Positions 1,452 through 17,513 of a stretch of 17,513 bases of DNA are shown piece after piece. A model generated the notes under the pieces. That model did no database searches. It was not told where the DNA came from and saw only the letters and a list, made by a program, of their open reading frames with translations. Both the position numbers and the translations under genes were made by a program. The stretch's first letter is position 1. Each line of letters opens with the position of its first letter. The DNA comes from Minisyncoccia bacterium. GTDB lineage: Bacteria; Patescibacteriota; Minisyncoccia; Phycocordibacterales; UBA918. The stretch spans positions 1-17,513 of the forward strand of contig CAXRCZ010000003.1 of the NCBI GenBank assembly GCA_964229335.1, in the 5' to 3' direction.

Positions 1452-1473
1452 TCCTCACTCACAGAACAGAAGC

Positions 1474-1500
1474 AAAAAACCACCGGAGGGGTGGTTTTTT
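1474..1500 (+). terminator. Intrinsic terminator, possibly bidirectional
   Basis: AAAAAA-CCACC-ggagg-GGTGG-TTTTTT, beginning about 20 nt after the TAA at 1449-1451. Confidence 0.8.
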
Positions 1501-1503
1501 GGA

Positions 1504-1512
1504 TGGTACAAT
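1504..1512 (+). promoter_or_regulatory. Extended -10 promoter, probably giving a leaderless transcript
   Basis: TGGTACAAT followed by 7 nt and then ATG 1520; no SD. Confidence 0.6.
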
Positions 1513-1519
1513 GGTTAGC

Positions 1520-2905: not shown

Positions 2906-2946
2906 TAGAAATTAGCATTCTAGACCGACTGCAGTACAATGTCTGT

Positions 2947-4065
2947 ATGTTTCGACTACGGACACTATTTGCCGGTTTTGATATCAAACTTTTTTTGCCG
3001 GTCATGGCGTTATCTTTGATGGGGTTGGTGACGATGTATTCACATGTTGGTGACAATACTTTTTTTAACCGACAGCTTTTCTGGCTTCTGCTGTCCGTAG
3101 TGATTATGTTTCTGGCTATTATTCCGGACTATCGTTTTTTACGCACTGGTAATATCGTCTTCTTTTTTTATATTGCAATCGTAGCGGCACTCTTTTTGGT
3201 GTTGATTGTCGGTGAAGTTACTTTGGGTGCCCAAAGTCGATTTGATTTTGGAATCTTTTCGGTACAACCAGCAGACCCGGCAAAGCTGGTTTTGATTTTA
3301 GTCCTAGCTAAATACTTTGCTAAACGCCACCAAGAAATTAGCTATTTTAAACACATTCTTATCTCTGGGGCGTATGCAGCAGTTGTTTTTGGGCTGGTAT
3401 TTATCCAACCAGACTTCGGCTCGGCAGTAATTTTGTTTTTGGTCTGGCTAGGAATGGTGTTAGTTTCTGGTATTAAAGTTCGGCACTTGATGACCGTATT
3501 TTTACTTGGGACAGTAGCGTTTGTGGCGATGTGGCAGTTCGTCTTTTTTGATTATCAAAAAGAGCGAATCATGACCTTTGTTAACCCACTCGAAGACATT
3601 CAAGGGGCTGGTTACAACGCCTATCAATCAACGGTGGCTATTGGTTCTGGAGGCTTGTTTGGAAAAGGTATCGGATATGGCACTCAATCAAAGTTTTTAT
3701 TTTTACCAGAATATGAGACAGACTTTATTTTTGCTGCGTTTGCTGAGGAGTGGGGACTGGTCGGCGTGCTCCTTTTGTTTAGCTCTTTTGGAGTAGTGAT
3801 TTGGCGATTGCTGACATTTGCTGCCACTGGCGCTAGTAATTTCGAGAGATTATTTACAGTCGGAGTAGCCACGCTTCTGACAGCGCACTTTTTTGTGCAC
3901 ATAGGAATGAATATAGGACTGTTGCCGGTGACAGGTACTACTATCCCATTTTTAAGTTATGGTGGCTCACATCTCTTAACTGAATTCATTGCCATTGGTA
4001 TGGTGATGGGTATGAGACGTTATACCACCAAAGTCGAATCACAATTGACTACACTAGATGAGTAG
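2947..4065 (+). CDS. rodA: Rod shape-determining protein RodA (SEDS family peptidoglycan glycosyltransferase)
   Basis: Multi-pass membrane protein with GAQSRF, SVQPADPAK, QPDFGSA, GYNAYQSTVAIGSGG, FLPEYETDFIF, AEEWG and LPVTGTTIPFLSYGGS motifs; YQKERIMTF is more RodA-like than FtsW-like. Confidence 0.88.
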   Translation: MFRLRTLFAGFDIKLFLPVMALSLMGLVTMYSHVGDNTFFNRQLFWLLLSVVIMFLAIIPDYRFLRTGNIVFFFYIAIVAALFLVLIVGEVTLGAQSRFDFGIFSVQPADPAKLVLILVLAKYFAKRHQEISYFKHILISGAYAAVVFGLVFIQPDFGSAVILFLVWLGMVLVSGIKVRHLMTVFLLGTVAFVAMWQFVFFDYQKERIMTFVNPLEDIQGAGYNAYQSTVAIGSGGLFGKGIGYGTQSKFLFLPEYETDFIFAAFAEEWGLVGVLLLFSSFGVVIWRLLTFAATGASNFERLFTVGVATLLTAHFFVHIGMNIGLLPVTGTTIPFLSYGGSHLLTEFIAIGMVMGMRRYTTKVESQLTTLDE

Positions 4066-5189
4066 CATCGAAATGTTTGTGACTGCATTTTCTCAATAGA
4101 AAAATTATTCACTACTTTAGTTTGTAGGCTGTGACCTAGTCGTTGACGCATCCCATTATCTCGAATGAGCATTTGTAAAGTCACTGTGAGCACCCTACTT
4201 TCAGGGGGAATTAAAATACCATCTTCGCCAGTTTCAATCAGGCTTTGTAGCCCAGGCAAGTCACTGGCTACCACTGGTAAAGCAGCTGCACCAGCTTCGA
4301 GTATCACGTAAGGCAAACCTTCCTTGACCGAAGGTAATATAAAAACATCAAAGGCTTTTAGATACCGCGGCACAGCGTCAATATAGCCCAACAAGTGGAC
4401 TCGCTCACTGACTCCTAGTTTTTTAGCTAGCAAATCTAGCTGTTCATACTCTTCTCCTTCACCAGCAATAAACAGCTGAACAGTTGGAGGGAGTTGTGTG
4501 AGTGCGTGAATCGCCGCCTGCCAGTTTTTGTTTGGGTGGAGTTCTCCGATACCACCAACCCAAAAGCTTTTTTGATCGGTATGGGGGGATAATTTTTTGC
4601 GAGCTTCTTCACGCTCAAAAAAATTAATTGGCGCAATACCGTTAGCTACCACGACAACTTTTTTGCTCAGCAATGGTAATGAAGTCAGTCGTTCTTTATC
4701 TTGTTCACTCAATACTATGGTGGTGTGTGAAAGAAAAACAGTCCACCAGGTCAACAGGGTGATACACCAGCGCTGCCACCACGGCCGCCACGTCTCATCT
4801 ATTGTGAGTCCATGCGAAGTAAAGACTACTCTCTCTATTCCCAACATTCTTCCTGCTAGCACGCCTATACCTCCAGCTTTCGAGCTAGAAAGATGCAATG
4901 TTGTTGGTCGGACTTGTTTAATTAGGTTATAGACTTCAAAAAAGGCTTTGATGTCGCGGACCAGTGACATGTCACGCATAAAATTTCTTATGTACACAGT
5001 TGCTATCTGTCCTTGGTGTAGTCGTTCTAACAACGCGCCACTTTTGGCTGATTTTTGACCAGTGCCTCCAGCGGCCACTACTACCTCCGCGCCTCGCTGC
5101 TTGGCTGCCATCGCTAAATCATACACATATTTTTGCGCTCCACCGAAATTACTTTTAGTTATTAGATAAAGAATTTTTTCACCATCCAT
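4020..5189 (-). CDS. Glycosyltransferase family 4 (GT-B)
   Basis: N-terminal KILYLITKSNFGGAQKYV; HLSSSKAG; C-terminal DVFILPSVKEGLPYVILEA (EX7E motif). Confidence 0.92.
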   Translation of the reverse strand: MDGEKILYLITKSNFGGAQKYVYDLAMAAKQRGAEVVVAAGGTGQKSAKSGALLERLHQGQIATVYIRNFMRDMSLVRDIKAFFEVYNLIKQVRPTTLHLSSSKAGGIGVLAGRMLGIERVVFTSHGLTIDETWRPWWQRWCITLLTWWTVFLSHTTIVLSEQDKERLTSLPLLSKKVVVVANGIAPINFFEREEARKKLSPHTDQKSFWVGGIGELHPNKNWQAAIHALTQLPPTVQLFIAGEGEEYEQLDLLAKKLGVSERVHLLGYIDAVPRYLKAFDVFILPSVKEGLPYVILEAGAAALPVVASDLPGLQSLIETGEDGILIPPESRVLTVTLQMLIRDNGMRQRLGHSLQTKVVNNFSIEKMQSQTFRCYSSSVVNCDSTLVV

Positions 5190-5310
5190 GTCTGTAGCAT
5201 ACGGTTTGGTGACAGAATAGTCTAGGAAGCATACTAGTTAGAAAACTTTACACAAATAGAATTACTTGCGTAATAAAAAAACTCCAGTAGGATGGATTGC
5301 AATATTTAGT

Positions 5311-6663
5311 ATGGGAGAGAGAACCAGAGAACTACTACTTTTGATTATTGGCGACATTATAATTTTCAATGTCGCCTTATTAGTGACTCTGACTGTTCGG
5401 TATTTAGAGATTCCTACTACCGAACTATTACAAGCACACGTTCCACCGTTCATTGCGTTTTCAGCAGTCTGGTTGCTGGTATTTTTTATTCTCGGTCTTT
5501 ATGACAAGCATACTAATATGCTCAAACGGTTGATGGTTACGCGTATCATCTACGCTCAAATCCTGAACGTATTGTTGGCCGCGGTGCTATTTTTCAGTTT
5601 TCCATTTGGCATTACTCCTAAGACAAACTTGGTAATTTACTTACTAGTATCCAGTGCATTATTGACTTGGTGGCGTCTATACATCTTTCCTAAGTTATCA
5701 CCCAAACAAAGACACAAAGCTATCTTGTTAGCAAATGGCCCCGAAGCCATTGAACTAGCAGACGAAATCAACAACAACGATCGCTATAATTATTACTTTG
5801 TACGAATTCTTGATGATGAGGCGATTGCCGCTACACCGGATTTTGAGAACCGCATTTTGGGTCTAATGCAGCGAGAAGGAATTGAAATAATCGTGGCTGA
5901 CCCTAGAGGTGGAGCAGTTAAATCTTTTTTACCGGTATTGTTTAATCTTTCATTTCTTAGTTTTGCTTTTACGTTTCTAGATTTCAATCGTCTGTACGAG
6001 GATACTTTCGACCGGGTGCCGGTTGGAATGATTCAATATGAGTGGTTCATTGATAACATCTCTCAGTCTAAGAGTGCGGTATATGATGTCGTAAAAAGAA
6101 TCATCGACATTGTTGGCGCAGTTGTACTACTAATTCCTACTGCAATCCTGTTTCCATTTATTGCTATTGCTATCAAGCTCGATGACCACGGATCATTGTT
6201 CTACAAAGCAGAACGAGTGGGTCAGCACAATCAACCCATTATGCTGTACAAGTTTCGCACCAAAAATGGTAGTGATGTTGGCGAAGCTGCTTTGACCAGT
6301 ACACTCAAAGATACACGCGTAGGAACATTTATGCGCAAAAGTCGAATTGATGAATTACCACAGCTGATTAACGTGTTGCGTGGAGACTTGTCGTTTATCG
6401 GGCCGCGACCAGAGATGCCTTCACTGGCAGCGGTATACGCTAAAGAAATTCCTTACTACAACACGCGTCATTTTATGAAGCCAGGCTTGTCAGGCTGGGC
6501 GCAGATTAATAATTTTGATGTACCTCGTGGGGGAGTTGATGTGCCACGCACGGTGGCAAAGTTGTCATACGATTTATATTATCTCGAGCGACGTTCTCTG
6601 CTACTGGATACCCAAATCATCTTGAAGACCATCGCCACTCTCCTTATGAGAACTGGTACGTAG
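5311..6663 (+). CDS. Polyprenyl-phosphate glycosylphosphotransferase (bacterial sugar transferase, WcaJ/CpsE-like)
   Basis: Four N-terminal TM helices, then KRIIDI, YKFRT, RIDELPQLINVLRGDLSFIGPRPE, KPGLSGWAQ and DLYY. ATG 5311 is preferred; TTG 5266 is possible. Confidence 0.92.
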   Translation: MGERTRELLLLIIGDIIIFNVALLVTLTVRYLEIPTTELLQAHVPPFIAFSAVWLLVFFILGLYDKHTNMLKRLMVTRIIYAQILNVLLAAVLFFSFPFGITPKTNLVIYLLVSSALLTWWRLYIFPKLSPKQRHKAILLANGPEAIELADEINNNDRYNYYFVRILDDEAIAATPDFENRILGLMQREGIEIIVADPRGGAVKSFLPVLFNLSFLSFAFTFLDFNRLYEDTFDRVPVGMIQYEWFIDNISQSKSAVYDVVKRIIDIVGAVVLLIPTAILFPFIAIAIKLDDHGSLFYKAERVGQHNQPIMLYKFRTKNGSDVGEAALTSTLKDTRVGTFMRKSRIDELPQLINVLRGDLSFIGPRPEMPSLAAVYAKEIPYYNTRHFMKPGLSGWAQINNFDVPRGGVDVPRTVAKLSYDLYYLERRSLLLDTQIILKTIATLLMRTGT

Positions 6664-6669
6664 TAGATT

Positions 6670-6678
6670 TGCTATACT
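6670..6678 (+). promoter_or_regulatory. Extended -10 promoter (leaderless)
   Basis: TGCTATACT, 6 nt, ATG 6685. Confidence 0.65.
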
Positions 6679-6684
6679 GCGTTA

Positions 6685-7593
6685 ATGTCTAAAAAATATA
6701 TTATAACTGGAGGTGCTGGATTTATTGGCTTAAATCTCACTGACTTTTTAATAAAAGAAGGTCATGAGGTGGTGGTAATAGACAATTTGGTCAGTGGTGA
6801 TAAAAGTAAACTTCCTGCTCAAGTAGAGTTTCATGAGACCGATGTCAGAGACAAAGATTCTCTGATTGAAATTTTTGCTGGTGCTGATTGCGCAGTGCAT
6901 TTAGCTGCGCTACCACGGGTTCAGTTTTCGATAGAACATCCAGACGAAACACATGATGTAAATGTCAACGGTACACTCACGGTGCTTGAAGCAGTGAAGG
7001 CGGCTGGGGTAAAGCGATTGGTGTTTGCCGCCTCAAGTTCAGCTTACGGTGACCAAGAAACACTACCACTTTCAACCTCACTGCCAGTGCAACCGAAATC
7101 TCCGTATGCGTTACACAAATATATCGGTGAAGAGTACCTGAAGCTCTGGCACATGTTATATAGTATTGAAACAGTCTCCCTCCGATTCTTCAATGTATAC
7201 GGCCCAAATTTAGATCCCGATGGCCCCTACGCGCTGGTAATCGGACGCTTTTTAAAGCAATTATCTGAAGGTAAAAAGTTAACAGTTACTGGTGATGGCG
7301 AGCAAACCAGAGACTTCACGCACGTAGATGATGTCGCCAACGCAATCCTAGCTGCCTCACAATCCGATAACGTAGGTAAAGGAGAAGTGTTAAATGTTGG
7401 GGCTGGTAGACAGACTTCCATTAATGATTTGGCAGCTCTACTAGGAGGCGAAATAGAGTATGTGCCGCCGCGTATCGAACCAAAGCATACCTTGGCAGAT
7501 ATCTCTGAAACTACTGAGTTATTGGACTGGAAACCAACCATTTCATTAGAGGAGGGGATTGCAGCGTTAAAAAAAGACTGGCAACTAAACTAG
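6685..7593 (+). CDS. NAD-dependent nucleotide-sugar epimerase/dehydratase (extended SDR, WbpP/GalE-like)
   Basis: TGGAGFIG Rossmann motif, SSSAYG, YALHK (YxxxK), RFFNVYGP, GDGEQTRDF. Confidence 0.93.
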   Translation: MSKKYIITGGAGFIGLNLTDFLIKEGHEVVVIDNLVSGDKSKLPAQVEFHETDVRDKDSLIEIFAGADCAVHLAALPRVQFSIEHPDETHDVNVNGTLTVLEAVKAAGVKRLVFAASSSAYGDQETLPLSTSLPVQPKSPYALHKYIGEEYLKLWHMLYSIETVSLRFFNVYGPNLDPDGPYALVIGRFLKQLSEGKKLTVTGDGEQTRDFTHVDDVANAILAASQSDNVGKGEVLNVGAGRQTSINDLAALLGGEIEYVPPRIEPKHTLADISETTELLDWKPTISLEEGIAALKKDWQLN

Positions 7594-7609
7594 TCACCAA
7601 TAGATTATT

Positions 7610-7618
7610 TGCTATACT
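7610..7618 (+). promoter_or_regulatory. Extended -10 promoter (leaderless)
   Basis: TGCTATACT, 6 nt, ATG 7625; identical to the motif before the epimerase. Confidence 0.65.
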
Positions 7619-7624
7619 CACTCG

Positions 7625-8416
7625 ATGTTAATTGATGGGAGAAAAATAGCTGCTGATATATACGAAGAAATAACCAGTGAGGTGCAAAAGCGTCCGAAGG
7701 CACCACACCTCACGGTGGTTACTTGTGCGCCAAATTTCGAAACCAGAAAGTATTTAGAACTCAAAAAAAGACACTCGCAGGAGGTGGGAATTACTTTAAA
7801 CATCATCGAACTTCCAGTTGAAGCTAGTACTTACGACGCAGTAACTTGTATCCAGACAATTTTGCCGTACACCGATGCTGTGGTGGTACAACTACCGTTA
7901 CCGTCACATATCGACCGAGAAGCAGTACTCGATAGCATCCCCCCAACCAAAGATCCAGACGTCTATTCCTATGAACCAAATCAACAAGAGTGTCTTCCTC
8001 CAGTAGTCGCCGCCATCGATGAAATGGCAGCACTGCATAACGTAGCGTTTTCAAAGAGCAAGGTGGTGGTGCTAGGTGCCGGGCGACTGGTAGGCGGTCC
8101 GGCAGCAAAGTATGCAAAAGCTGCCGGAGCAGAAGTTTAAGTTATTGATAAAGAGTCTACAGAAATCAGTGATCCACTAGTCGAAGCTGACATCATAATT
8201 ACTGGCATTGGACAACCAAATTACATCACGCCAGAAATGGTAAAAACAGGAGTAGTAGTATTTGACGCTGGTACTTCAGAAGACGGCGGAGCGCTAGTGG
8301 GAGATGTTCATGCAGCCGTCGCAGACAAAGCGGAACTCTTTACGCCAGTGCCAGGCGGAATCGGGCCAGTCACAGTGGCAACCTTGTTACGTAATGTGAT
8401 AGTTCTTACTCGCTAA
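7625..8416 (+). pseudogene. folD: Bifunctional methylenetetrahydrofolate dehydrogenase/cyclohydrolase with one in-frame TAA at 8138-8140 (pseudogene or sequencing error)
   Basis: N-terminal half has MLIDGRKIA, YLELK, VVQLPLP, KDPD, GRLVG. After the TAA the same frame continues VIDKES...ADIIITGIGQPNYITPEMVKTGVVVFDAGTSED...LVGDV...FTPVPGGIGPVTVATLLRNV to TAA 8414-8416 (264 codons in total including the final stop). Confidence 0.9.
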
Positions 8417-8443
8417 TATTGCTCATTATATATAGCAATATTA
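8414..8443. repeat. AT-rich inverted repeat after folD (possible terminator or protein-binding site)
   Basis: TAATATTGCT-cattatatat-AGCAATATTA, with perfect 10-bp arms. Confidence 0.5.
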
Positions 8444-8518
8444 TTACTACAGAAGAACAATCTGACTTGTGAAGAGTTTCTGATATAGGTAAAGCATGGT
8501 ATAACAAACGACATATTT

Positions 8519-9961
8519 ATGTCTGAACCCAACTCTCAGTCTAACCAATTTCTACGTATTTTCCGTGCAGCAGGACTAATCGCTCTCATTGGCTACTTGG
8601 CCTTTGTGGTGTACCAAAATGCTACTGCTGAATCCAATAACCCTTTTAAACTTGGTCTTGATTTGGCCGGTGGTTCACACCTGCTGTACGAGGCAGACAC
8701 GACCGGTATTGACCCCCTCGAAGTCGACGAGTTGATGGGAGTTCTGAAAGAGGTAATTGAGCGACGCATCAACATATTTGGGGTATCAGAGCCAATTGTA
8801 CAAGTCGAAAGCAGTAGTTTTGTTACGGACGAACCCACTCAAAGACTAGTAGTGGAACTGCCTGGAGTGACAGATGTTGAAGAAGCCGTGGCAGAGATTG
8901 GCCGTACACCACTACTGGAATTCAAGCTTATCGACCAAGAGATCTTAGCCAATCAACAAACCCTCGAGTCACTTGAGTCATTAGCACAAAGCCAAGGCAC
9001 TTCTACTGGTCGAGCCGAAATCGGCAATGTACGCGTCAACGGAGAAGTAATTGACGAGAACGCTAGTCCATATATTGATACTGGACTTACCGGGCGTTAT
9101 GTTGAATCAGCGGCCTTGGAATTTGCCGGCGGACAGTCAGGACAACTTTCAAACGAACCCTTGGTAGCGGTGCGTTTTACTGCTGAAGGGTCAGATTTAT
9201 TTGCCGAGATTACTAGTCAAAATGTTGGCGAACAGCTAGCCATCTTTCTTGATGGAGAAATGATTTCGGCTCCAGTAATCAACGAAGCTATTCCCGGAGG
9301 AACAGCTATAATCTCTGGTGGTTTTACTCCAGATGAAGCTCGCGCTCTAGCACAAAACCTCAACTTCGGAGCTTTGCCGGTACCGATAGAGCTGGTAAGT
9401 ACTCAAACCATCGGTCCTTCACTCGGTGCCGAAGTACTAGACAAGGGTCTCACTGCGGGAGTGATTGGTTTTAGCTTCGTTATTCTATTTATGATTGCGT
9501 GGTATCGATTGCCAGGAGTCGTGGCTAGTGTGGCATTGGTGTCATACGTGATTTTGATGTTAGCGCTGTTCCAATATATTCCAGTAACTTTGACGGCGGC
9601 TGGTTTGGCTGGATTTATTTTGTCACTCGGAATGGCTGTTGATGCTAATGTATTGGTCTTTGAACGAATGAAGGAAGAGATTAGAGCTGGAAAAAACAGC
9701 CGTGAAGCGGCAGTCGAAGGGTTCAATCGAGCCTGGAGTGCCATTCGAGACGGTAATATCACCAGCCTACTTTCAGCTATTATTCTGTTTTGGTTTGGTA
9801 CCTCACTCGTAAAAGGGTTCGCGTTAGTGTTTGGTATTGGGGTAATTATCTCTATGTTTTCTGCACTAGTCATTTCTCGGACTATCATGATGTCATTACC
9901 TGAAGTGCGTGCCGAAGACAAAAAAGCCATCAAGTTATTCGATAGCGGGATTTCCTTTTAG
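8519..9961 (+). CDS. secD: Protein translocase subunit SecD
   Basis: KLGLDLAGGSHL, ERRINIFGVSEP, LVVELPGV, AIFLDG, LNFGALPVP, IGPSLG, GMAVDANVLVFERMKEE, AIRDGNIT. Confidence 0.97.
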   Translation: MSEPNSQSNQFLRIFRAAGLIALIGYLAFVVYQNATAESNNPFKLGLDLAGGSHLLYEADTTGIDPLEVDELMGVLKEVIERRINIFGVSEPIVQVESSSFVTDEPTQRLVVELPGVTDVEEAVAEIGRTPLLEFKLIDQEILANQQTLESLESLAQSQGTSTGRAEIGNVRVNGEVIDENASPYIDTGLTGRYVESAALEFAGGQSGQLSNEPLVAVRFTAEGSDLFAEITSQNVGEQLAIFLDGEMISAPVINEAIPGGTAIISGGFTPDEARALAQNLNFGALPVPIELVSTQTIGPSLGAEVLDKGLTAGVIGFSFVILFMIAWYRLPGVVASVALVSYVILMLALFQYIPVTLTAAGLAGFILSLGMAVDANVLVFERMKEEIRAGKNSREAAVEGFNRAWSAIRDGNITSLLSAIILFWFGTSLVKGFALVFGIGVIISMFSALVISRTIMMSLPEVRAEDKKAIKLFDSGISF

Positions 9962-9964
9962 ACT

Positions 9965-10939
9965 ATGTTTGTTATCACACACAGAATTTTGTTTTTGTAT
10001 ATTGGAGCGGCCATCATGCTAGGTAGTATTGCTCTTATCAGTCTCCTAGGCGTCAGGGTTGGAATTGACTTTACGGGAGGTTCGTTACTAGAGGTCGCGT
10101 ACGACACAGCTCCTGAAAAACAATTGGTCGAAGCGGCACTCGGTGACTATGATTTAGGCGGTGTGTCGGTGAGAGAGTCAGTGAGCGAAGATGGTAGAGA
10201 TGCTTACTTTATTCAGACCCGCGATTTAAGTGAAGAAGAAAGGATTGCTATTGGAGCAGATGTAACGATGTTGGGAGAAGGAGGAGAGGTCAGTCGTTTC
10301 ACCTCGATTGGGCCAGTGATTGGTCAAGAGTTGGCAGACAAAGCGGTGTGGGCTATCGGAGCAGTAATGCTGATTATTGTGCTATATGTTGCCTTTGCGT
10401 TTGCCGGAATTGGCACCCCGGTTAGCTCATGGGTATATGGTGCCACAACTATCTTAGTGTTAGTACACGATGTATTGGTACCAGCAGCAGTAATGAGCTT
10501 GCTCGGAGTTTTGATTGGTGCCGAGATTGATGTCTTGTTTGTGATGGCTTTGCTAGCTGTGTTGGGATACTCGGTCAATGACACTATTGTAATCTTTGAC
10601 CGCGTACGCGAAAATCTCAAAGCCAATCGAACTGAAGAAAAGGAAACTATTGAAGTCGTCGGGGGAATGGATCGTGAAAAAATTACCTATACGCTAACAG
10701 CTCCATACGAAAAAATAGTCGGTGAAGCGGTGCGAGATAGTATGGCTCGCTCTATCAATACTTCACTAACTACGTTTGTTGCACTCACTGCCCTGTACTT
10801 CTTTGGCGGTTCGACCACCCAAGTATTTGCTCTTATCTTGATGGCGGGAGTAGCGGCCGGTGCGTACTCATCAATCTTCATCGCTAGTCCTCTGGTGGTG
10901 GCGTATGAAGAGTGGAAGCGTAAGAAAGAGGCTAAATAA
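9965..10939 (+). CDS. secF: Protein translocase subunit SecF
   Basis: GIDFTGGS, SIGPVIGQEL, LVHDV, LGYSVNDTIVIFDRVRE, RSINTSLTT, GAYSSIFIASP; starts 3 nt after the secD stop. Confidence 0.97.
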   Translation: MFVITHRILFLYIGAAIMLGSIALISLLGVRVGIDFTGGSLLEVAYDTAPEKQLVEAALGDYDLGGVSVRESVSEDGRDAYFIQTRDLSEEERIAIGADVTMLGEGGEVSRFTSIGPVIGQELADKAVWAIGAVMLIIVLYVAFAFAGIGTPVSSWVYGATTILVLVHDVLVPAAVMSLLGVLIGAEIDVLFVMALLAVLGYSVNDTIVIFDRVRENLKANRTEEKETIEVVGGMDREKITYTLTAPYEKIVGEAVRDSMARSINTSLTTFVALTALYFFGGSTTQVFALILMAGVAAGAYSSIFIASPLVVAYEEWKRKKEAK

Positions 10940-10944
10940 TCACT

Positions 10945-11019
10945 ATGGTGATAGGTATTACCGGAACTGACGGAGCGGGCAAGGGTGAGAAGGTTTGGGA
11001 AACCTTCGCAAGACCTTGA
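10945..11019 (+). other. 24-codon ORF whose first 14 codons duplicate the N-terminus (Walker A) of the downstream kinase
   Basis: ATG GTG ATA GGT ATT ACC GGA ACT GAC GGA GCG GGC AAG GGT... translates MVIGITGTDGAGKGEKVWETFARP*, versus MIIGITGTDGAGKGTVV at 11124. Confidence 0.85.
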
Positions 11020-11086
11020 CAGACGCCACTTTTCTTTAAGTGTGGTGTCGACAAGGTTTACTGCGGCCTGTAAGGCGCCCGTTCCG
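10971..11086. ncRNA. Putative structured RNA or insertion element (four-way junction) of unknown family
   Basis: Closing stem CGGAGCGGGC 10971-10980 / GCCCGTTCCG 11077-11086. Hairpin GAAGGTTT-GGG-AAACCTTC 10989-11007. Long hairpin 11008-11064 (AGACCTTG/CAAGGTTT and GACGCCAC/GTGGTGTC). Small hairpin GCCT-GTA-AGGC 11066-11076. The G-U pairs work on the + strand. Confidence 0.55.
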
Positions 11087-11123
11087 GCATAACTCAATTT
11101 TTGTTACCATAGAATACATATTT

Positions 11124-11681
11124 ATGATAATCGGAATCACAGGTACAGATGGCGCAGGGAAAGGAACGGTAGTCGAATATCTCATCCAGAAAAAAGGCTT
11201 CACTCACTTTTCTGCTCGTGCATTTTTGGTAGAAGAATTACAAAAAGCTGGCAATCAAAACTCTGTGCGCAACGACATGCGACTGATGGGAAACAAGCTG
11301 CGAGCCGAACATGGTGATGAATTCTTAGCCAAGCTGGCTCTAGAAAAAATTAAAGCTACAGGTATAGAAAACGCAGTCATTGAATCTCTCAGAGCCGTCG
11401 CAGAAGCCGAGTATATAAAACAACACGGCGGCATTCTACTTGCTGTAGACGCGGATGTGCACTTACGATTCAAGCGGGTGCAGGCTCGTCGCTCCGAGAG
11501 TGATAAAGTTGACTTTGCTACCTTTGTGGCTCAAGAAGAGTTAGAGAAAAACGACCCAGATCCTAACGGCATGCAAAAAGCCCGAGTGATGGAAATGGCC
11601 GATTATACGGTCACCAATAACGGCAGCGTTGAAGAACTACATACCCAAGTAGAAGAATTTTTAGGGAGTTTACAAGCATAG
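11124..11681 (+). CDS. P-loop nucleotide kinase (AAA family; dephospho-CoA kinase/UPF0200-like)
   Basis: MIIGITGTDGAGKGT Walker A at the N-terminus, VIESLR, RFKRVQAR, MADYTVTNNGSVEEL. ATG 11124 preferred over GTG 11040; TGTTACCAT extended -10-like motif at 11102-11110. Confidence 0.85.
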   Translation: MIIGITGTDGAGKGTVVEYLIQKKGFTHFSARAFLVEELQKAGNQNSVRNDMRLMGNKLRAEHGDEFLAKLALEKIKATGIENAVIESLRAVAEAEYIKQHGGILLAVDADVHLRFKRVQARRSESDKVDFATFVAQEELEKNDPDPNGMQKARVMEMADYTVTNNGSVEELHTQVEEFLGSLQA

Positions 11682-11693
11682 GAAACTTATATT

Positions 11694-11719
11694 GAATCAC
11701 CGCATTAATGCGGTGATTC
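11694..11719. promoter_or_regulatory. Perfect 26-bp palindrome, candidate operator for the AbrB-like gene
   Basis: GAATCACCGCATTAATGCGGTGATTC is its own reverse complement, has no U-tract, and lies just upstream of TGCTACTAT (11724-11732), which is followed by 6 nt and ATG 11739. Confidence 0.65.
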
Positions 11720-11738
11720 CCTATGCTACTATTTTTAT

Positions 11739-11924
11739 ATGCCGAGAAGAAAATTAGAAAATAGAAATATACGTACCCTTAACAAAACATCGGGCGGCAA
11801 AAGTTACGGTATCACTTTACCAATTGAAGCCATCCGCACGTTTCGCTGGCAGCGCAAACAAAAGCTTGAGTTGGTTATCGATGAAAAGCGTAAGCGGATT
11901 ATCATCCAAGATTGGGAAGGGTAG
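11739..11924 (+). CDS. Small AbrB/MazE/SpoVT-like DNA-binding protein
   Basis: 61 aa, basic; RTLNKTSGGKSYGITLPIEAIRTFRWQRKQKLEL...RIII fits the swapped-hairpin pattern (S-x-x-ITLP-x-x-x-x-R). Confidence 0.75.
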   Translation: MPRRKLENRNIRTLNKTSGGKSYGITLPIEAIRTFRWQRKQKLELVIDEKRKRIIIQDWEG

Positions 11925-11934
11925 TACTAATTAC

Positions 11935-12627
11935 TTAAGAAATTTTTGTACCGACGAATGACTGTTCGTCTAGGTATTTAATTACTTCGTCCAAAGCATT
12001 GCCGTTAATAATCGCTACTTCGATATCATTGTCTGCAGCATCTTTAGCCGCTACTGGATCAAATGGAGAAGATAGCCCGGGGTCCCACTCTTCGGGAATA
12101 AGTTTTCGAAAATCACTCCAAGATATTTGCTCAATTTTCTCAGCCGTTTCATCAACATTTGGATCAGCCGTATAGACGTAATCAATATTTGAAAGGTTGA
12201 TGACTTTTTTGGCGCCCACCAAACGAGCAATTTGAATGGCTCGCAAGTCAGTCGATGAGCCAGGACGATAGCCGGCTGCAATTACGACTGACTCATGCTC
12301 AGGCACGTCTAAAATGTCGTCGGGATTAGTAATTACCACTCGATGAGCCACGTCGCGAAATACTGTACGCAACAAATGACCGTTCAAGCGCGTAGCATGG
12401 ATACCCATCCAATCTAGGTCGTCGCCAGTCAGCTCAGTGACAGCGCTAGCGGCATCTTGATAATTACGGGCAGTACGCCCGCCACCAGCGATGATAATAA
12501 AACGACGGCCTAAAGCCGTCTCAGTTGCGATAAAAGATGTAAGGTTTTTGAGAAAGGTAGTATCAATTTCTCCAGGAACAATAAGTGAACCACCAACAGA
12601 CATCACTACAATTTCATTTTTAGACAT
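11935..12627 (-). CDS. pyrH: UMP kinase, archaeal-type subfamily
   Basis: VMSVGGSLI, GGGRTARNYQ, DWMGIHATRLNGHLL, RPGSSTD, NIDYVYTADP, PGLSSPFDPVAAK, FVGTKI. Confidence 0.92.
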   Translation of the reverse strand: MSKNEIVVMSVGGSLIVPGEIDTTFLKNLTSFIATETALGRRFIIIAGGGRTARNYQDAASAVTELTGDDLDWMGIHATRLNGHLLRTVFRDVAHRVVITNPDDILDVPEHESVVIAAGYRPGSSTDLRAIQIARLVGAKKVINLSNIDYVYTADPNVDETAEKIEQISWSDFRKLIPEEWDPGLSSPFDPVAAKDAADNDIEVAIINGNALDEVIKYLDEQSFVGTKIS

Positions 12628-12710
12628 AGCAATAGGTAGTGTACGATACTTTGCTTAGAGAGACAAAGTAGTAATTACATTAGAGGTAATATGTGCCATA
12701 ATGCAGGTAT

Positions 12711-13727
12711 ATGAAACCATCACCCGAATTAATCAAAGCTATCAAAGATCGCCTAGCTCTTGGGCATAGCCAAGAAGAAATTAAAGCTGAGTGTCTTGCT
12801 ACCGGCTACACCGAAGCTGAATTTACTGAAGCTTACAAAGAAGCTACCACAGAACCAGAATCTGCTAAAAAAGAAATCAAATTGACTAGCGCCAACAGTT
12901 TGCTTGGTGAGGGGATACAGAACTGGCGCCGGTATCTTGATTTGTGGCTAGTACTGGCTCTGGCTTTAATGATTGGTACTGTTGCTGAATACTTGATTAC
13001 TCTAGACCTTTCACCTTTGTTAGAGATTGCTTTGGTGGTCCTGATGATCGGAACATTTATTGCTTATATGATATTTAGCGGTATTGCACTGCATGTTACA
13101 GCTACGAAACCAGAGAAGACGACCTGGAACTCATCTGCTCGCTGGGTGTACCGGCATATTCTACCGCTAGTATGGCTCTATATTTTGACCAGCTTAGTGG
13201 TATGGGGTGGATTCTTCCTGTTTATCATTCCGGGAATCATCGTCTCAGTGTATTTATATCTGTCTCCCTATGTCTTGGTGCATGAAGAAAAGCGTGGTGA
13301 AAAAGCGATGCTGCGCAGTCGAGAGATAGTCTGGGGTCACTGGTGGCAGTTGTTGCGTAAGCTCGGCCTGCTATTTATCTATATATTCTTCTTTATGCTA
13401 GTGGTAGGTGCTGTCGCTACCTTGTTCGAGTATGTGCTACCACTCACTACAGCTGTGCTAGCCGGAGAACTACTATTGCAAGCCGCCTCAGCCGCTATTG
13501 TGATAGTCATGTTTTCAGTCGGAAATAGTCTATATCACCAAACAAAAGCCCTTCCTGTAACAGAGAAAGACACCCCTAATGGCACTATTCGCTACCGAAC
13601 CCTAGCGATGATTGGGTTATTGATGATTTTAGCCATGACTGCACTTATTGCATATCTGTTATATATGGGCGTTCCAGCAGAGTGGGACTGGACCTCACCA
13701 GCCAACGATACTATCATCAATCGCTAA
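12711..13727 (+). CDS. Integral membrane protein with a small N-terminal helical domain (resembles glycerophosphodiester phosphodiesterase membrane-domain-like proteins)
   Basis: Several hydrophobic helices; pattern LFIIPGIIVSVYLYLSPYVLVHEEKRGEKAMLRSREIVWGHWW; TGCCATAAT 8 nt upstream of the ATG. Confidence 0.75.
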   Translation: MKPSPELIKAIKDRLALGHSQEEIKAECLATGYTEAEFTEAYKEATTEPESAKKEIKLTSANSLLGEGIQNWRRYLDLWLVLALALMIGTVAEYLITLDLSPLLEIALVVLMIGTFIAYMIFSGIALHVTATKPEKTTWNSSARWVYRHILPLVWLYILTSLVVWGGFFLFIIPGIIVSVYLYLSPYVLVHEEKRGEKAMLRSREIVWGHWWQLLRKLGLLFIYIFFFMLVVGAVATLFEYVLPLTTAVLAGELLLQAASAAIVIVMFSVGNSLYHQTKALPVTEKDTPNGTIRYRTLAMIGLLMILAMTALIAYLLYMGVPAEWDWTSPANDTIINR

Positions 13728-13735
13728 CGAGATAA

Positions 13736-13765
13736 CTAAAAAGCCTTTAGAATAAGGCTTTTTAG
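13736..13765 (+). terminator. Intrinsic terminator, possibly bidirectional
   Basis: CTAAAAAGCCTT-tagaat-AAGGCTTTTTAG immediately after the stop at 13727. Confidence 0.75.
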
Positions 13766-13802
13766 GTCATTTTACGTATCTGTCTGTAAATAGGCTAGAG
13801 AC

Positions 13803-13831
13803 TTGCAATTTTGTAAAATCTATGCTATATT
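13803..13831 (+). promoter_or_regulatory. Sigma70-type promoter of the three-gene operon
   Basis: TTGCAA (13803-13808), 17-nt spacer ending in TGC, TATATT (13826-13831). Confidence 0.65.
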
Positions 13832-13905
13832 GTTGACAGCCCGGTTCTTTCGTTCTTCGAAAGACTGAATATCTAATACACACAAACAATTGAAAGGAAA
13901 GCGCT

Positions 13906-14586
13906 ATGCGCAATCTTATGATGTGGATCATGCTTTCGTCGCTCATGGCGCTCGGAATCATGCTTCCGACCACTGCTTCGGCTCGTGAGACGGTCGTACC
14001 GTTTATTACGGCCGAGCATTACATGAAAAACATTGCTCTCGACGAATACCGAACGAACCAGCGTGGATACTTCCGTTCTGAAGCGGCTTTCGACCTTCTG
14101 GTCGACTATGTCGCTGATGAAATCGGACAGCCGCTGACCGACGCCCAGTTCATTGCGCTTATGCGCAGTGACCAGGTGCGGGCACGTGATTGTCCGACGA
14201 GTGAAGTCATCAACACCGGCGCTCTGCGAGGAAATCAGTTCTACTGGTTTACTCGCCACTGTCGTCTTGGCGAACAAATCGTCCAGGCGAAGGTGCATGG
14301 CCGATGGATCGACCTGTTTTCCCTCAACTGCCTCAACGCAGTCGAGGACAAGACGCCGGTTCCATCGCCGCTCGTGTTCGTGCCGGCTCCTCCGGAGCCG
14401 CAGCCCAAACAATGTCGCTGGGTGGCAGTCTCGCAGACGGTGCGGCAAAATCTGCCGTATCAGCTGCCGAGCACGGCCATCCATGTGGGTTGCTGCAAAA
14501 GCTGCAGTCATACCCACTTCATCAATGGACAGCTGGTCGACTTCGGAACCTCCGGGTCGATCACCTACGAACAGGTCTGCGACTAA
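13906..14586 (+). CDS. Secreted Cys-rich hypothetical protein
   Basis: SD-like GAAAGGA; signal peptide ending TTASA; 8 Cys including GCCKSCSHTH; Pro-rich linker PVPSPLVFVPAPPEPQP. Confidence 0.8.
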   Translation: MRNLMMWIMLSSLMALGIMLPTTASARETVVPFITAEHYMKNIALDEYRTNQRGYFRSEAAFDLLVDYVADEIGQPLTDAQFIALMRSDQVRARDCPTSEVINTGALRGNQFYWFTRHCRLGEQIVQAKVHGRWIDLFSLNCLNAVEDKTPVPSPLVFVPAPPEPQPKQCRWVAVSQTVRQNLPYQLPSTAIHVGCCKSCSHTHFINGQLVDFGTSGSITYEQVCD

Positions 14587-14606
14587 GCAGATCAAGGAGA
14601 GATGAT

Positions 14607-15269
14607 ATGAAAATCATGAAGTACCCCACGGCCATCTTGACCGCCGTCTCCGTCAGTCTGGCCACCCCGGCCATGGCTGGCGACTTCGACGACGACAAGG
14701 CCGAGCTTCCGCTCGAGCTGAAGGTCGAAGACCTGATGGACGGTCGGAACGCCTACTTTGGCGACAGCCGCGACTACACCGTCATGCGCTTCAATCCGTT
14801 CACCTACCGGGTAACCGTCCGCGACGTCTACCGTCCGGACGGACACTTACAGAACGTCATGCGCATCACCGACTACTGTCTGACCGAAATGGGTCTGATT
14901 GAGGCGGTGCCTGAACGACAATGTGCCAATCCGGTCGGACCCATCATTTCGGTGAACGAGACCAATGGCAACGCGACGGCCGGCAGGCTGCTGATGGGTG
15001 CGCTCGGCGGGAGCCTTCAGGCTTTCACTGGCATCACTGCTCAGAGCCTGTTCGGTGGCTGCAACGGCAGCTGCGAAGGTCGTGGTAGCACCATCACCGT
15101 AACCGCGACCGGCGGCGCTGCCGTGGCAGAAGGTGGTGACGCTGCGTCAGCTGCCTCGGCTGCTCAGCAGCAGAACCAAGAGCAGGCACAAGCCATGACT
15201 CAGTCCCAGGCGCAAGCCGTGGACGCTGCTGGTCCGGGACCTTGTCCCACTGGAGGCGGTTGCGAGTAA
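14607..15269 (+). CDS. Secreted hypothetical protein with a Gly/Ala/Gln-rich C-terminus
   Basis: SD AAGGAGA at 14594-14600, ATG 14607 in frame with ORF 14304..15269; signal peptide MKIMKYPTAILTAVSVSLATPAMA; 6 Cys; tail AASAASAAQQQNQEQAQAMTQSQAQAV...CPTGGGCE. Confidence 0.8.
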   Translation: MKIMKYPTAILTAVSVSLATPAMAGDFDDDKAELPLELKVEDLMDGRNAYFGDSRDYTVMRFNPFTYRVTVRDVYRPDGHLQNVMRITDYCLTEMGLIEAVPERQCANPVGPIISVNETNGNATAGRLLMGALGGSLQAFTGITAQSLFGGCNGSCEGRGSTITVTATGGAAVAEGGDAASAASAAQQQNQEQAQAMTQSQAQAVDAAGPGPCPTGGGCE

Positions 15270-15277
15270 TCGCTCGA

Positions 15278-15335
15278 GCTATCGGGCGCGGATGCGATGG
15301 GGGAATTCTTCCCCAAAGCCACCGCGCCCGATAGC
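15278..15335. repeat. Strong intergenic hairpin without a U-tail
   Basis: Perfect 14-bp stem GCTATCGGGCGCGG / CCGCGCCCGATAGC enclosing an inner GGGGAA-ttc-TTCCCC stem. Confidence 0.75.
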
Positions 15336-15370
15336 CGCGGTATCGAATTCAACCAAATTGGAGATCAATC

Positions 15371-16477
15371 ATGAAAATTATTTCCATTCTGGTCGGTGCC
15401 GTGACATTCCTCATGGTGTCGGCTAGTCCCGCATACGCTTCCGGGTGTGATTTTATCCCCGGACAGCAAATGCAAATCAACCAAGCTGCTGTATCTGAAC
15501 GGCTGGAAAATGCCGGCGCTGACACTGTCGATAAGTTTGTCGGCCAAATAGTCGGTGCCTTGGCGCAACCAGAGAACGCAGATGCACTTCCGTCTGTCAG
15601 TCAGCAATGTCGTTCGTCGCAGTTTCTGCGGCCGGCGATTATCCAGCTGAACAACCTCAGTCCTAACGCATCTTCTCAGACGCTGGTTGGCAAAGTGCTG
15701 GTTCTTCCGGCGCAAATGGCCACTTCGGCCTCGTCACCGCGACCGGCGACTCCCGCTGTTCCTAGCAGGCAGCCGGCTCCGAGTGTCACCGAACGCCAAG
15801 TCAATGAAGCTGCGCAAGCGGCTGAAGAGGCGGCAGAAGCGGTTGATCGGGTGCAAGACGAACTCACCGAGGCGGAAGCCAAGGAAGAAACTCGTTCGCG
15901 CACCCGTAGTCAACTCATTGACCAGCACAAGGCCGCCGTCAGGCAAGGTCAGCGTGACAGGGCAAGTGAGCTGATGGGTCAAATCCTGACAATCAACAGG
16001 GAGCTCGAAAGCTTGCGAAGCGAGATTTCCTCGCTGCGAAAGGATTTAACCGCTTGGAAAGATGAGTCCGACAATAGGTTGAAAGACCTTGAGGACTGGC
16101 GGAAAAAAGCCGAACCGCAGCTCGCCGCTATCATCGGTGAACCGGACGAAAGCGGTCAGCCGGTGGCGAGCCTGCGCGATCTGTTCGATGGTCTGAAGAA
16201 CAAGGCGGATCGTACCTATGTGGACGATCAAATCGCCAAGTTCCAAGCCTGCCAACAGATTCACCCTCTCTGCGTTCTCAATGAGCAGGGTGAGTATGTC
16301 GGAGCCGAATCCGAAGCGGAAGCTACGGAGGAAGGTGATAGCTGGAATCTGGCCACGTTTGTCTGGATTATGCTCGGCATCGGTCTTTTGCTTCTCGTTG
16401 GCTACCTCGTGTATCGGTTTATCCGCAAGGATGAGGCCGAGAATGAGGAATCCAATGAGGGCAACGCAGAATCCTGA
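15371..16477 (+). CDS. Type I membrane protein: signal peptide, possible degenerate LysM-like domain, Pro-rich linker, coiled coil, C-terminal TM anchor
   Basis: SD GGAGA; signal peptide ending SPAYA; AIIQLNNLSP...LVGKVLVLP; PRPATPAVPSRQPAP; heptad-rich region (INRELESLRSEISSLRKDL); TM FVWIMLGIGLLLLVGYLVY followed by RFIRK and an acidic tail. Confidence 0.82.
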   Translation: MKIISILVGAVTFLMVSASPAYASGCDFIPGQQMQINQAAVSERLENAGADTVDKFVGQIVGALAQPENADALPSVSQQCRSSQFLRPAIIQLNNLSPNASSQTLVGKVLVLPAQMATSASSPRPATPAVPSRQPAPSVTERQVNEAAQAAEEAAEAVDRVQDELTEAEAKEETRSRTRSQLIDQHKAAVRQGQRDRASELMGQILTINRELESLRSEISSLRKDLTAWKDESDNRLKDLEDWRKKAEPQLAAIIGEPDESGQPVASLRDLFDGLKNKADRTYVDDQIAKFQACQQIHPLCVLNEQGEYVGAESEAEATEEGDSWNLATFVWIMLGIGLLLLVGYLVYRFIRKDEAENEESNEGNAES

Positions 16478-16496
16478 GTGGTTCCTATTATGGCGC

Positions 16497-16520
16497 GGGC
16501 GGCGAGCTTGCTCGCCGCCC
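16497..16520. repeat. GC-rich hairpin with CUUG tetraloop after the operon
   Basis: GGGCGGCGAG-CTTG-CTCGCCGCCC; outer GTGGTT (16478-16483) / AACCAC (16522-16527) can extend it. Confidence 0.7.
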
Positions 16521-16561
16521 AAACCACCCTTAGATATTCAATCAAAAAGTTATTTTATACG

Positions 16562-16598
16562 AAGCCCGAGTCAGTTTTGACTGGGGTTTTATTATTTA
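16562..16598 (+). terminator. Probable intrinsic terminator
   Basis: AAGCCCgAGTCA-gttt-TGACTgGGGTTT followed by a T-rich run. Confidence 0.55.
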
Positions 16599-16642
16599 TG
16601 GAGCAGGTTGTAAACCAATATCTCTTCGTCTACAACATCCGC

Positions 16643-16679
16643 TTGCATAAAAAACATATATCTGTATAATAGGCGCCAC
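16643..16679 (+). promoter_or_regulatory. rRNA operon promoter
   Basis: TTGCAT (16643-16648), 16-nt spacer, TATAAT (16665-16670), GC-rich discriminator AGGCGCCAC; matches the architecture of classical rrn P1 promoters. Confidence 0.75.
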
Positions 16680-16750
16680 TGTGTAGGGGTGAGTGATAGG
16701 TGTTTTTTGACGCCTCGGGTAAGTTCCGAAACTCACTCCTTAGGGCAGTT

Positions 16751-16770
16751 GTTACTTTGAAAATTAAATA
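16751..16770 (+). promoter_or_regulatory. boxA-like antitermination element in the rRNA leader
   Basis: GTTACTTTGAAAATTAAATA resembles the rrn boxA type GTTCTTTGAAAA and follows a hairpin downstream of the promoter. Confidence 0.45.
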
Positions 16771-17145
16771 ACATATATCTATGGTTCCCAAATCATAGAT
16801 ATGTAGGTTCGATGAGTAAACGAACATTGAGGCCGATATTTGGTGGCGGGAAAAAGCCACCAAATCCGGCACTAATTCGTAATATACCCTTTGGGTATTT
16901 ACTCATTGAGCATCACAGCACTTAAACATGTTTGTAAAAACATGTTTTCAAGACAGAAGAGTTCACCACGAGGGCATTTCCATTTTTATGGTCGCACTCG
17001 AGGTGCTTCCTAAAAATTAGGTTATTAATTCTTTTGTCTTATCCTTTAGGTGATCGTCTTTGAGAGAGCGTTGAGAAAAGTACACTCCGCTCACTATGCT
17101 CAAGGACGCAGATTCAAAGTTGAGCTTGCTCAACTAGAACCTGTC

Positions 17146-17513
17146 TTTAATTAGAGTTTGATCCTAGCTCAGGATGAACGCTGGCGGCGTGGATGAGGCA
17201 TGCAACTAAATGCATGGCAGACGAGGTAGGAACACGTAGGTACGTACCCAAGAGTCAGGGATAACCCGGTGAAAATCGGGATAATACTTGATGGTCCCTT
17301 CGGGGTAAAGATTTATCGCTCTTGGAACGGCCTGCGGGCTATCAGCTTGTTGGTACGGTAACGGCGTACCAAGGCTACGACGGCTAGGGGAGGTGAGAGC
17401 CTGACCCCCACCGATGGAACTGCGACACGGTCCATACTCCTACGGGAGGCTGCAGTCGAGAATCTTCCGCAATGGGCGAAAGCCTGACGGAGCGACGCCG
17501 CGTGGTGGATGAA
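17146..17513 (+). rRNA. rrs: 16S rRNA gene, 5' part (runs off the window; exact 5' end approximate)
   Basis: AGAGTTTGATCCTAGCTCAGGATGAACGCTGGCGGCGT at 17153; ATCAGCTTGTTGGT; ACTCCTACGGGAGGCTGCAG at 17436; GCAATGGGCGAAAGCCTGAC. Confidence 0.98.

Follow-up and report, generated by a model that had tools for sequence, protein, structure and literature searches.

A three-hairpin insertion at a duplicated kinase start in a Minisyncoccia genome is likely a small mobile DNA element

Integrative elements restore the tRNA genes or other gene ends that they interrupt, and bacterial MITEs such as Correia, RUP and ERIC are small, non-coding, dispersed and lineage-restricted. According to one account (PMC3333891), IS200/IS605 insertion leaves no flanking repeats, and REP/BIME sequences with TnpA-REP (RAYT), like IS200/IS605 ends, are short, multi-copy, strand-specific hairpins without terminal inverted repeats. 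Single-stranded hairpin repeats, the NTS/SRM, also accompany the Ssn nucleases of naturally transformable bacteria; tRNA, CPR and Patescibacteria do not appear in the main text of that report (Chenal et al. 2025, PMC11893778). The bridge or seek RNAs of IS110/IS1111 (10.1101/2024.01.24.577089, PMC11187229) are structured non-coding modules with target-complementary segments.

The element described here lies in a 17,513-nucleotide stretch of DNA from a Minisyncoccia bacterium (contig CAXRCZ010000003.1, positions 1 to 17,513), hereafter the window, and shares features with several of these systems. It has the short, multi-copy, strand-specific hairpins of REP and IS200/IS605 ends, likewise lacks terminal inverted repeats, and co-occurs with Y1 genes at the genome level. 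Nevertheless, it comprises three hairpins rather than the single palindrome, and carries an invariant GTGAG rather than the 5' GTAG, that are characteristic of REP/RAYT; it also sits inside conserved genes, replaces three bases, leaves a one-sided duplicate of a gene end and was not found flanking Y1 genes. IS200/IS605 elements follow a fixed tetra- or pentanucleotide without loss of target, whereas here only a G is fixed, three bases are replaced and duplicates are frequent. The likeness to the Ssn systems extends to small GIY-YIG genes, which are common in the genus, one of them, in the host genome, having the same dead-start/intact-start layout. The element differs from the SRM in sequence and size; SRM-like repeats are among its insertion sites, but it is not itself one of them. 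Nor does it flank ssnA-like genes (1 of 33 GIY-YIG loci has a copy, itself inserted in an SRM-like repeat).

An interrupted target with an intact end alongside, and alleles from different lineages, recall integrative elements, from which the element differs in that it lacks integrase and cargo, enters many targets in either orientation, replaces three bases and is followed by a target remnant and fold-back. It is a structured non-coding module with target-complementary segments, as are the IS110/IS1111 RNAs, but its host genome has no IS110 (DEDD) transposase, and the segments, which most copies of the window's subfamily lack, are not located in the conserved loops. Unlike MITEs, it has neither terminal inverted repeats nor a short target-site duplication. 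By analogy, the element would work most like REP or IS200/IS605 hairpins, with an outcome resembling that of target-restoring integrative elements. The features tested as defining for each class (GTAG tag, fixed tetranucleotide, inverted ends, integrase, clean removal) were absent. A literature search, covering subscription journals thinly and supplements aside, gave no description of the family, and the element is apparently undescribed.

The source genome is 0.74 Mb in size and 98% complete. In the window, the element interrupts the start of a P-loop kinase gene and is followed by an intact version of that gene (Table 1). Read-through from the dead start into the element ends at a stop codon at 11017-11019, giving 24 aa. 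The duplicated starts, MVIGITGTDGAGKG from the ATG at 10945 and MIIGITGTDGAGKG from the ATG at 11124, agree at 13 of 14 residues. Every sequence segment listed in a first-pass annotation of this DNA was present at its given position, and the three hairpins and duplicated kinase start that it described are real. The region 10787-11144 recurs at 99% or more on a contig from a second sample of this study; neither the element nor its left junction is therefore confined to a single assembly. No joints were found in four DNA contig sets from one study.

Table 1. Features at the interrupted kinase start, in window coordinates
Feature	Position	Strand	Remarks
secF	9965..10939	+	upstream neighbour; stop codon 5 nt before dead kinase start
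Interrupted (dead) P-loop kinase start	10945..10984	+	13 codons plus G
First-pass closing-stem 5' arm	10971..10980	+	strong pairing in window copy; not a family feature
Element	10985..11077	+	invariant 5' G to end of hairpin 3; 93 bases
Hairpin 1 module	10985..11012	+	GTGAG, 7-bp variable stem (10990-96/11000-06), GGG triloop, CGCAAG
Hairpin 2	11013..11057	+	covarying base (11013-18/11052-57), internal loop, variable-length stem
Linker and hairpin 3	11058..11077	+	GTA triloop 11070-72
Last three bases of hairpin 3	11075-77	+	occupy the place of three lost target bases (register tests)
Fold-back segment	11079..11085	+	exact reverse complement of intact junction 11163-11169; overlaps first-pass 3' arm
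Spacer before intact start	11086..11123	+	AT-rich; weak promoter-like matches only (2 sites at 9/12); putative role
Intact P-loop kinase gene	11124..11681	+	185 aa; Pfam AAA_18/AAA_17
Repeat of dead start within intact kinase gene	11124-11163	+	followed by 11164-11166, the triplet replaced by the element

As folded with RNAfold, 10961-11093 forms a four-way structure of -59.7 kcal/mol (z -5.15); none of 200 shuffles was as stable, so that the region folds far better than shuffled controls. In the window copy, the closing stem proposed earlier (10971-80/11077-86) has nine Watson–Crick pairs and one G-U. Nevertheless, when 100 copies were compared, pairing between the 5' flank and its own 3' flank was no better than between swapped, mismatched flanks (p 0.22). 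The closing stem was thus rejected as a fourth helix of the family, and the four-way junction is not the family structure. In the window's subfamily the corresponding test gave 4.81 against 4.79 pairs of 10 (43 copies), and an inverted copy of the upstream flank was not enriched (p 0.45).

The annotation had also proposed two mutually exclusive pairing registers. A perfect 7-bp alternative does exist (10961-67/11081-87), but its pair probability is 0.000 as RNA and 0.09-0.12 as DNA, compared with 1.00 and 0.86-0.91 for register 1. As nearly all of the weight lies on register 1 and almost none on register 2, a balanced switch is not supported. Similarly, a small hairpin said to hold the copy-1 ATG has a perfect 5-bp stem (10939-43/10948-52), with a probability of 0.63-0.92 as DNA but only 0.04-0.13 as RNA. 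Rfam searches agreed with the earlier failure to match tRNA, SRP, tmRNA or RNase P: 10961-11093 had no match in Rfam 15 at the gathering score, the sole match in the window being 16S rRNA, and 10900-11200 had none at E≤10. At 11 other element loci of the same genome, only neighbouring tRNAs passed the thresholds.

The suggestion of an unannotated, covarying, REP/MITE-like element proved well founded. A local search turned up further copies in the host genome and in relatives, and the stems of this multi-copy family, which is common in one genus of ultra-small bacteria, covary strongly. Fifteen profile matches, corresponding to 14 distinct loci, were found in the host genome. Among the 128 genomes of the genus, the 5' (hairpin-1) pattern, which does not demand pairing, occurs in 84 (241 matches, against 3 in a reversed control), the 3'-end pattern in 95 (354 matches, 0 in the control) and either of them in 109. 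The element is rarer in other genomes of the order (17 of 198), and 350 genomes of the phylum gave six hairpin-1 matches, one of which forms a hairpin. At least 121 metagenomic stretches match. No matches were obtained with two exact patterns in viral contigs or with blastn in phage and plasmid records. A separate contig scan returned 30 stretches, mostly labelled as other phyla; these were taken as chance and excluded from the counts, and three that were checked had no family pattern.

For detailed analysis, 145 copies including their neighbours were drawn from about 130 of 150 listed hairpin-1 matches (241 in all). Copies are uniformly about 70-100 nt long and occupy, in either orientation, dozens of targets that are unrelated to one another. 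Those hit repeatedly are msrA (8 loci), a glycosidase (7), a tRNA-Met site (7) and the kinase (5 besides the window), and further targets include rnhB, other tRNAs and rRNA ends; apart from the kinase, these are what we take the target genes to be from their motifs. Copies at the same site in different genomes are more similar (0.757) than pairs within a genome (0.728) or unrelated copies (0.684), which fits either homing or shared descent.

Pairing is conserved throughout the three hairpins. With a pattern blind to pairing, 1008 of 1015 stem positions of hairpin 1 are paired in the 145 copies, and in 244 cores the hairpin-3 arm is paired at 722 of 732 positions across 26 different arms. These counts are unfitted, whereas the alignment of 122 copies was fitted to the structural model; in it, 97.3% of 3512 cells are paired (slid controls, 36-49%), and two-sided changes are seen at 28 of 30 pairs and at 14 of 15 in hairpin 2. 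Wobble pairs in hairpin 1 are G-T 21 times and A-C 3 times, so the + strand is the folding strand (p 3e-4). The first-pass annotation had read G-U pairs as favouring a + strand RNA; the strand is correct, but the G-T bias fits RNA as well as DNA.

Triloops predominate in folds calculated with DNA parameters: GGG in hairpin 1, an invariant GTA in hairpin 3 and GNA in 24 of 39 hairpin-2 triloops. The tetraloops are GNNA in 20 of 37 cases, GNRA in 8 and UNCG in none. GNA triloops have an unusual stability in DNA that they lack in RNA, and the loop types lean to single-stranded DNA, without proving it.

Insertion leaves a characteristic footprint. The 20 nt upstream of the element are repeated downstream in 50 of 141 copies (null, 3 of 141), and the base after the downstream repeat is G in 49 of these 50; the element itself also begins with G. 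Bases 4-10 past the element match the continuation of the gene (4.76 of 7, against 2.13±0.22 and a maximum of 2.95 in 5000 shuffles; 37 copies), while bases 1-3 past the element match at the null level in the same 37 copies. In a gap scan, three replaced bases fit 41 of 120 copies and other gaps 5-10. A target remnant of 5-10 bases follows the element. The intact gene copy lies downstream in 47 of 120 copies and upstream in 6 (null, 0), irrespective of gene direction; in all, about 40% of copies have an intact gene end on the element's 3' side and some 60% have no detectable duplicate.

Metagenome and other-family loci, which were not used to derive these rules, followed them: 9 of 30 independent metagenome or order-level loci are duplicated (null, 1), with G in 9 of 9 and a gap of three in 5, compared with 0-1. 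Hot-spot copies share ancestry, so the counts overstate independent events. Conversion of the hairpin-3 arm towards the target was not seen. As a measure of lagging-strand-template preference, a feature of IS200/IS605 ends, replication skew was positive at 94 of 133 loci but at 25 of 51 where genes run opposite, with no replication-strand bias apparent when gene direction is taken apart.

Six genomes carry the element in the kinase gene, at three different codons, and five have the gene without it, which demonstrates mobility. In four element-free relatives the kinase start also closely follows secF, and the dead start occupies this native position. The dead and intact starts of the window differ at 12 of 12 third codon positions and at 1 of 24 first or second positions (1/0/12). 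This pattern indicates that two working alleles met in the window. Across 21 genes, five of 26 protein-gene cases having been dropped for a weak anchor, differences at codon positions 1/2/3 number 20/14/62 of 189 each, and seven pairs are identical. A decaying duplicate would not spare coding positions; in the diverged cases, both starts were thus functional until recently. From these sequences, a block of element, spacer and intact start would so have joined a start from another lineage in the diverged cases. A contig of another genome (G017:C53) has this kinase start interrupted twice in succession, at different codons, each insertion lying after its own copy of the start.

Base pairing with the target, through a 3' arm that contacts the D-G-A-G codons of the dead copy, had been proposed as the means of site recognition. 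In the four copies at kinase codon 13, the segment one base past hairpin 3 is instead the reverse complement of the copy's own intact junction. The four junctions differ; two complements are perfect over 7 bases, one over 6 and one has a G-T. Since the arm tracks the intact junction in all four, the contact with the dead copy is unsupported, and a better reading of the 3' arm is probably that it complements the junction in the intact gene. The idea that the arm would co-vary with its target held in four of four kinase-site copies but in 10 of 53 family-wide: these fold-back copies belong to the window's subfamily (permutation mean 1.4, maximum 7), of which 43 of 53 lack the segment. The order is often target remnant, short loop and a complement that includes the original triplet.

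A second subfamily, here called tRNA-tail, lies mostly behind tRNA genes, often without hairpin 1. Its target-complementary segment, located before hairpin 2, pairs with the copy's own 3' flank (3.38, against 2.22±0.17; 58 cores), and no comparable segment precedes hairpin 2 in the window's subfamily. Target-matched segments in the tRNA-tail subfamily and the fold-back copies show that base pairing with the target occurs in the family, yet not in the form proposed. In one genome (G061:C2), tRNA-tail copies form tandem arrays at 38438-38614 and 48752-49057, with periods of 155 and 142 bases.

Individual tRNA loci show further arrangements. At G000:C2:1993-2150 (minus strand), the hairpin-2 loop of one copy encloses a whole tRNA-Ile gene, and half-copies like it lie at tRNA-Ile in two other loci (L119 and L127). 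At L473:330-1100 and at three more loci (L097, L158 and L060), a second small hairpin insert, which appears to repeat a GTAAG motif, lies within hairpin 3 of the element; the tRNA-Asn of L473 also has a group I-like intron. At G000:C6:42922-43257, ARAGORN predicts a tRNA-Met with a 264-base intron, and an element copy lies about 200 bases downstream.

A survey of candidate partner enzymes brought up none whose gene is enriched next to or within element copies. The host genome encodes one Y1 gene (contig C10), two small GIY-YIG genes (C4 and C13), one tyrosine recombinase and ComEC, and gave no reverse transcriptase (RT) and no IS110 match. Y1 genes occur in 75 of 109 genomes with the element and in 5 of 19 others (p 7e-4), whereas RT genes, present in 40 of 128 genus genomes, show no co-occurrence (p 0.6); both comparisons treat related genomes as independent, and the Y1 association may reflect kinship or general mobile-element load. 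Nine genomes with at least five pattern matches have neither Y1 nor RT. Only 3 of 309 element loci contain a Y1 gene and 3 a small GIY-YIG gene, about background, and 2 of 35 Y1/RT loci carry element copies, at tRNA genes. GIY-YIG genes are present in 126 of 128 genus genomes, which makes their presence uninformative. ORF clusters around 135 and 147 loci comprised only target genes and housekeeping neighbours. No ORF was seen inside hairpin 2 in the loci viewed, nor in any of the 9 of 144 cores without a nearby 5' arm.

An 89-aa GIY-YIG gene with short inverted ends lies inside the start of a GAPDH-like gene at G000:C4:20810-21430. This cassette has the same dead-start/intact-start layout, with the junction before G, and ends unrelated to the element; the rescue step may therefore be a general host process. 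Copies inserted in register into SRM-like hairpin repeats were found at L229:1793-1887, at L117:1490-1577 and in genome G045, twice beside ssnA-like genes.

We have high confidence that the element is real and mobile; most likely we are dealing with a small piece of mobile DNA, not with a regulatory RNA switch. The reading we favour, with a probability of roughly 0.6, is insertion of folded single-stranded DNA with a duplication made by repair, the element being non-autonomous and its enzyme supplied in trans. Single-stranded DNA is preferred because of the GNA triloops, the antisense copies and the lack of a link to reverse transcriptase. A single-strand nuclease or transposase acting in trans would recognise the hairpins and attach the element to the strand of the target; our first candidate is a Y1/HUH enzyme, followed by an Ssn-like GIY-YIG enzyme. 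Repair synthesis would then enter the target for a few bases and sometimes fold back on the opposite strand, giving a target-complementary segment that keeps the original triplet. By re-priming upstream, it would copy the intact gene end, and the host would thereby survive. Blocks of element, spacer and gene start would subsequently be exchanged among lineages, with transformation as the probable route, and arrive at the same conserved site, so that nearly all differences between the two starts would be synonymous.

The strict asymmetry of the strands (G-T 21, A-C 3) and the precise 5' end would also suit an RNA-borne element. This would be a small structured RNA, its 5' end possibly set by a ribozyme, that an RT acting in trans copies into DNA where the target is nicked. 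Staggered nicks would cause the loss of 2-3 bases and template jumps the duplication; short target deletions do occur in R2-type retrotransposition, RT genes are found in 40 of 128 genus genomes and some loops are GNRA (8 of 37). We regard this route as rather unlikely, given that the 98% complete host genome has no RT, RT genes do not co-occur with the element, no ribozyme matched in Rfam, the triloops of hairpins 1 and 3 suit DNA better, and the duplicate begins beyond the target remnant and not directly at the element end. Restored tRNA and gene ends, together with the allele-level divergence of the starts, are typical of integrative elements, and an entire tRNA-Ile gene lies within hairpin 2 of one copy. 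The hairpins might accordingly be recombination sites of larger elements that lost cargo and integrase, with the spare gene end as the replacement fragment. Such remnants are quite improbable, however, since the targets are dozens, unrelated and in both orientations, the length is a uniform ~70-100 nt, no cargo-bearing version was seen in the loci viewed, viral contigs and phage and plasmid records gave no copies, and a three-base replacement is not a conservative crossover.

A host function would be a translation-coupled switch, in which ribosomes toggle a four-way junction that conceals the Walker A codons, or a self-splicing intron. The strong fold of the window copy, ends reading GT...AG, the 13 of 14 dead-start residues kept and a 24-codon leader ORF speak for it. 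With many copies within tRNA or rRNA genes, some of them antisense, the switch raised in the first-pass annotation is unsupported. In addition, the closing stem is not conserved, register 2 is unpopulated, excision would leave behind three incorrect bases that bear no relation to the target (positions 7-9 in tRNA-Met, for example), and the element is absent from the same gene in five relatives; we consider either function very hard to sustain.

The plain interpretation of the fold-back segment is a template-switching scar from repair. A more adventurous and rather doubtful alternative is a self-programming homing element, whereby each insertion would write the complement of the invaded site beside the hairpin scaffold, after hairpin 3 in the window's subfamily and before hairpin 2 in the tRNA-tail subfamily, and the complement would then guide the element, along with its rescue gene start, to that site in other cells. 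Were the segments to act as guides, this would be a very small programmable integration system, combining guide-directed single-strand integration with a built-in spare for a broken essential gene. In any case, the family would represent a common selfish element in bacteria whose streamlined genomes are assumed to be poor in mobile DNA. Its footprint (a fixed G, a three-base swap, a one-sided gene-end duplicate and sometimes a fold-back) points to uncharacterised single-strand insertion chemistry and supplies exact substrates for enzyme discovery. For annotation, element insertions account for the spurious tRNA fragments and doubled gene starts that these genomes contain.

Other features of the host genome were recorded alongside. 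On contig C7, the tRNA list and an element copy are mirrored about the centre, which suggests an inverted-duplication assembly artefact. Within the window, a folD-like ORF at 7625-8140 encodes the catalytic domain only (171 aa), and no ORF of at least 60 aa lies between its end and secD. A near-perfect 18-bp inverted repeat (11689-11724) is located ahead of a small MazE/AbrB-like gene (11739-11924). An unannotated ORF block at 13906-16477, which precedes a 16S rRNA gene whose first base is 17146, contains a GC-rich 25-bp hairpin (15278-15335) and looks like inserted cargo.
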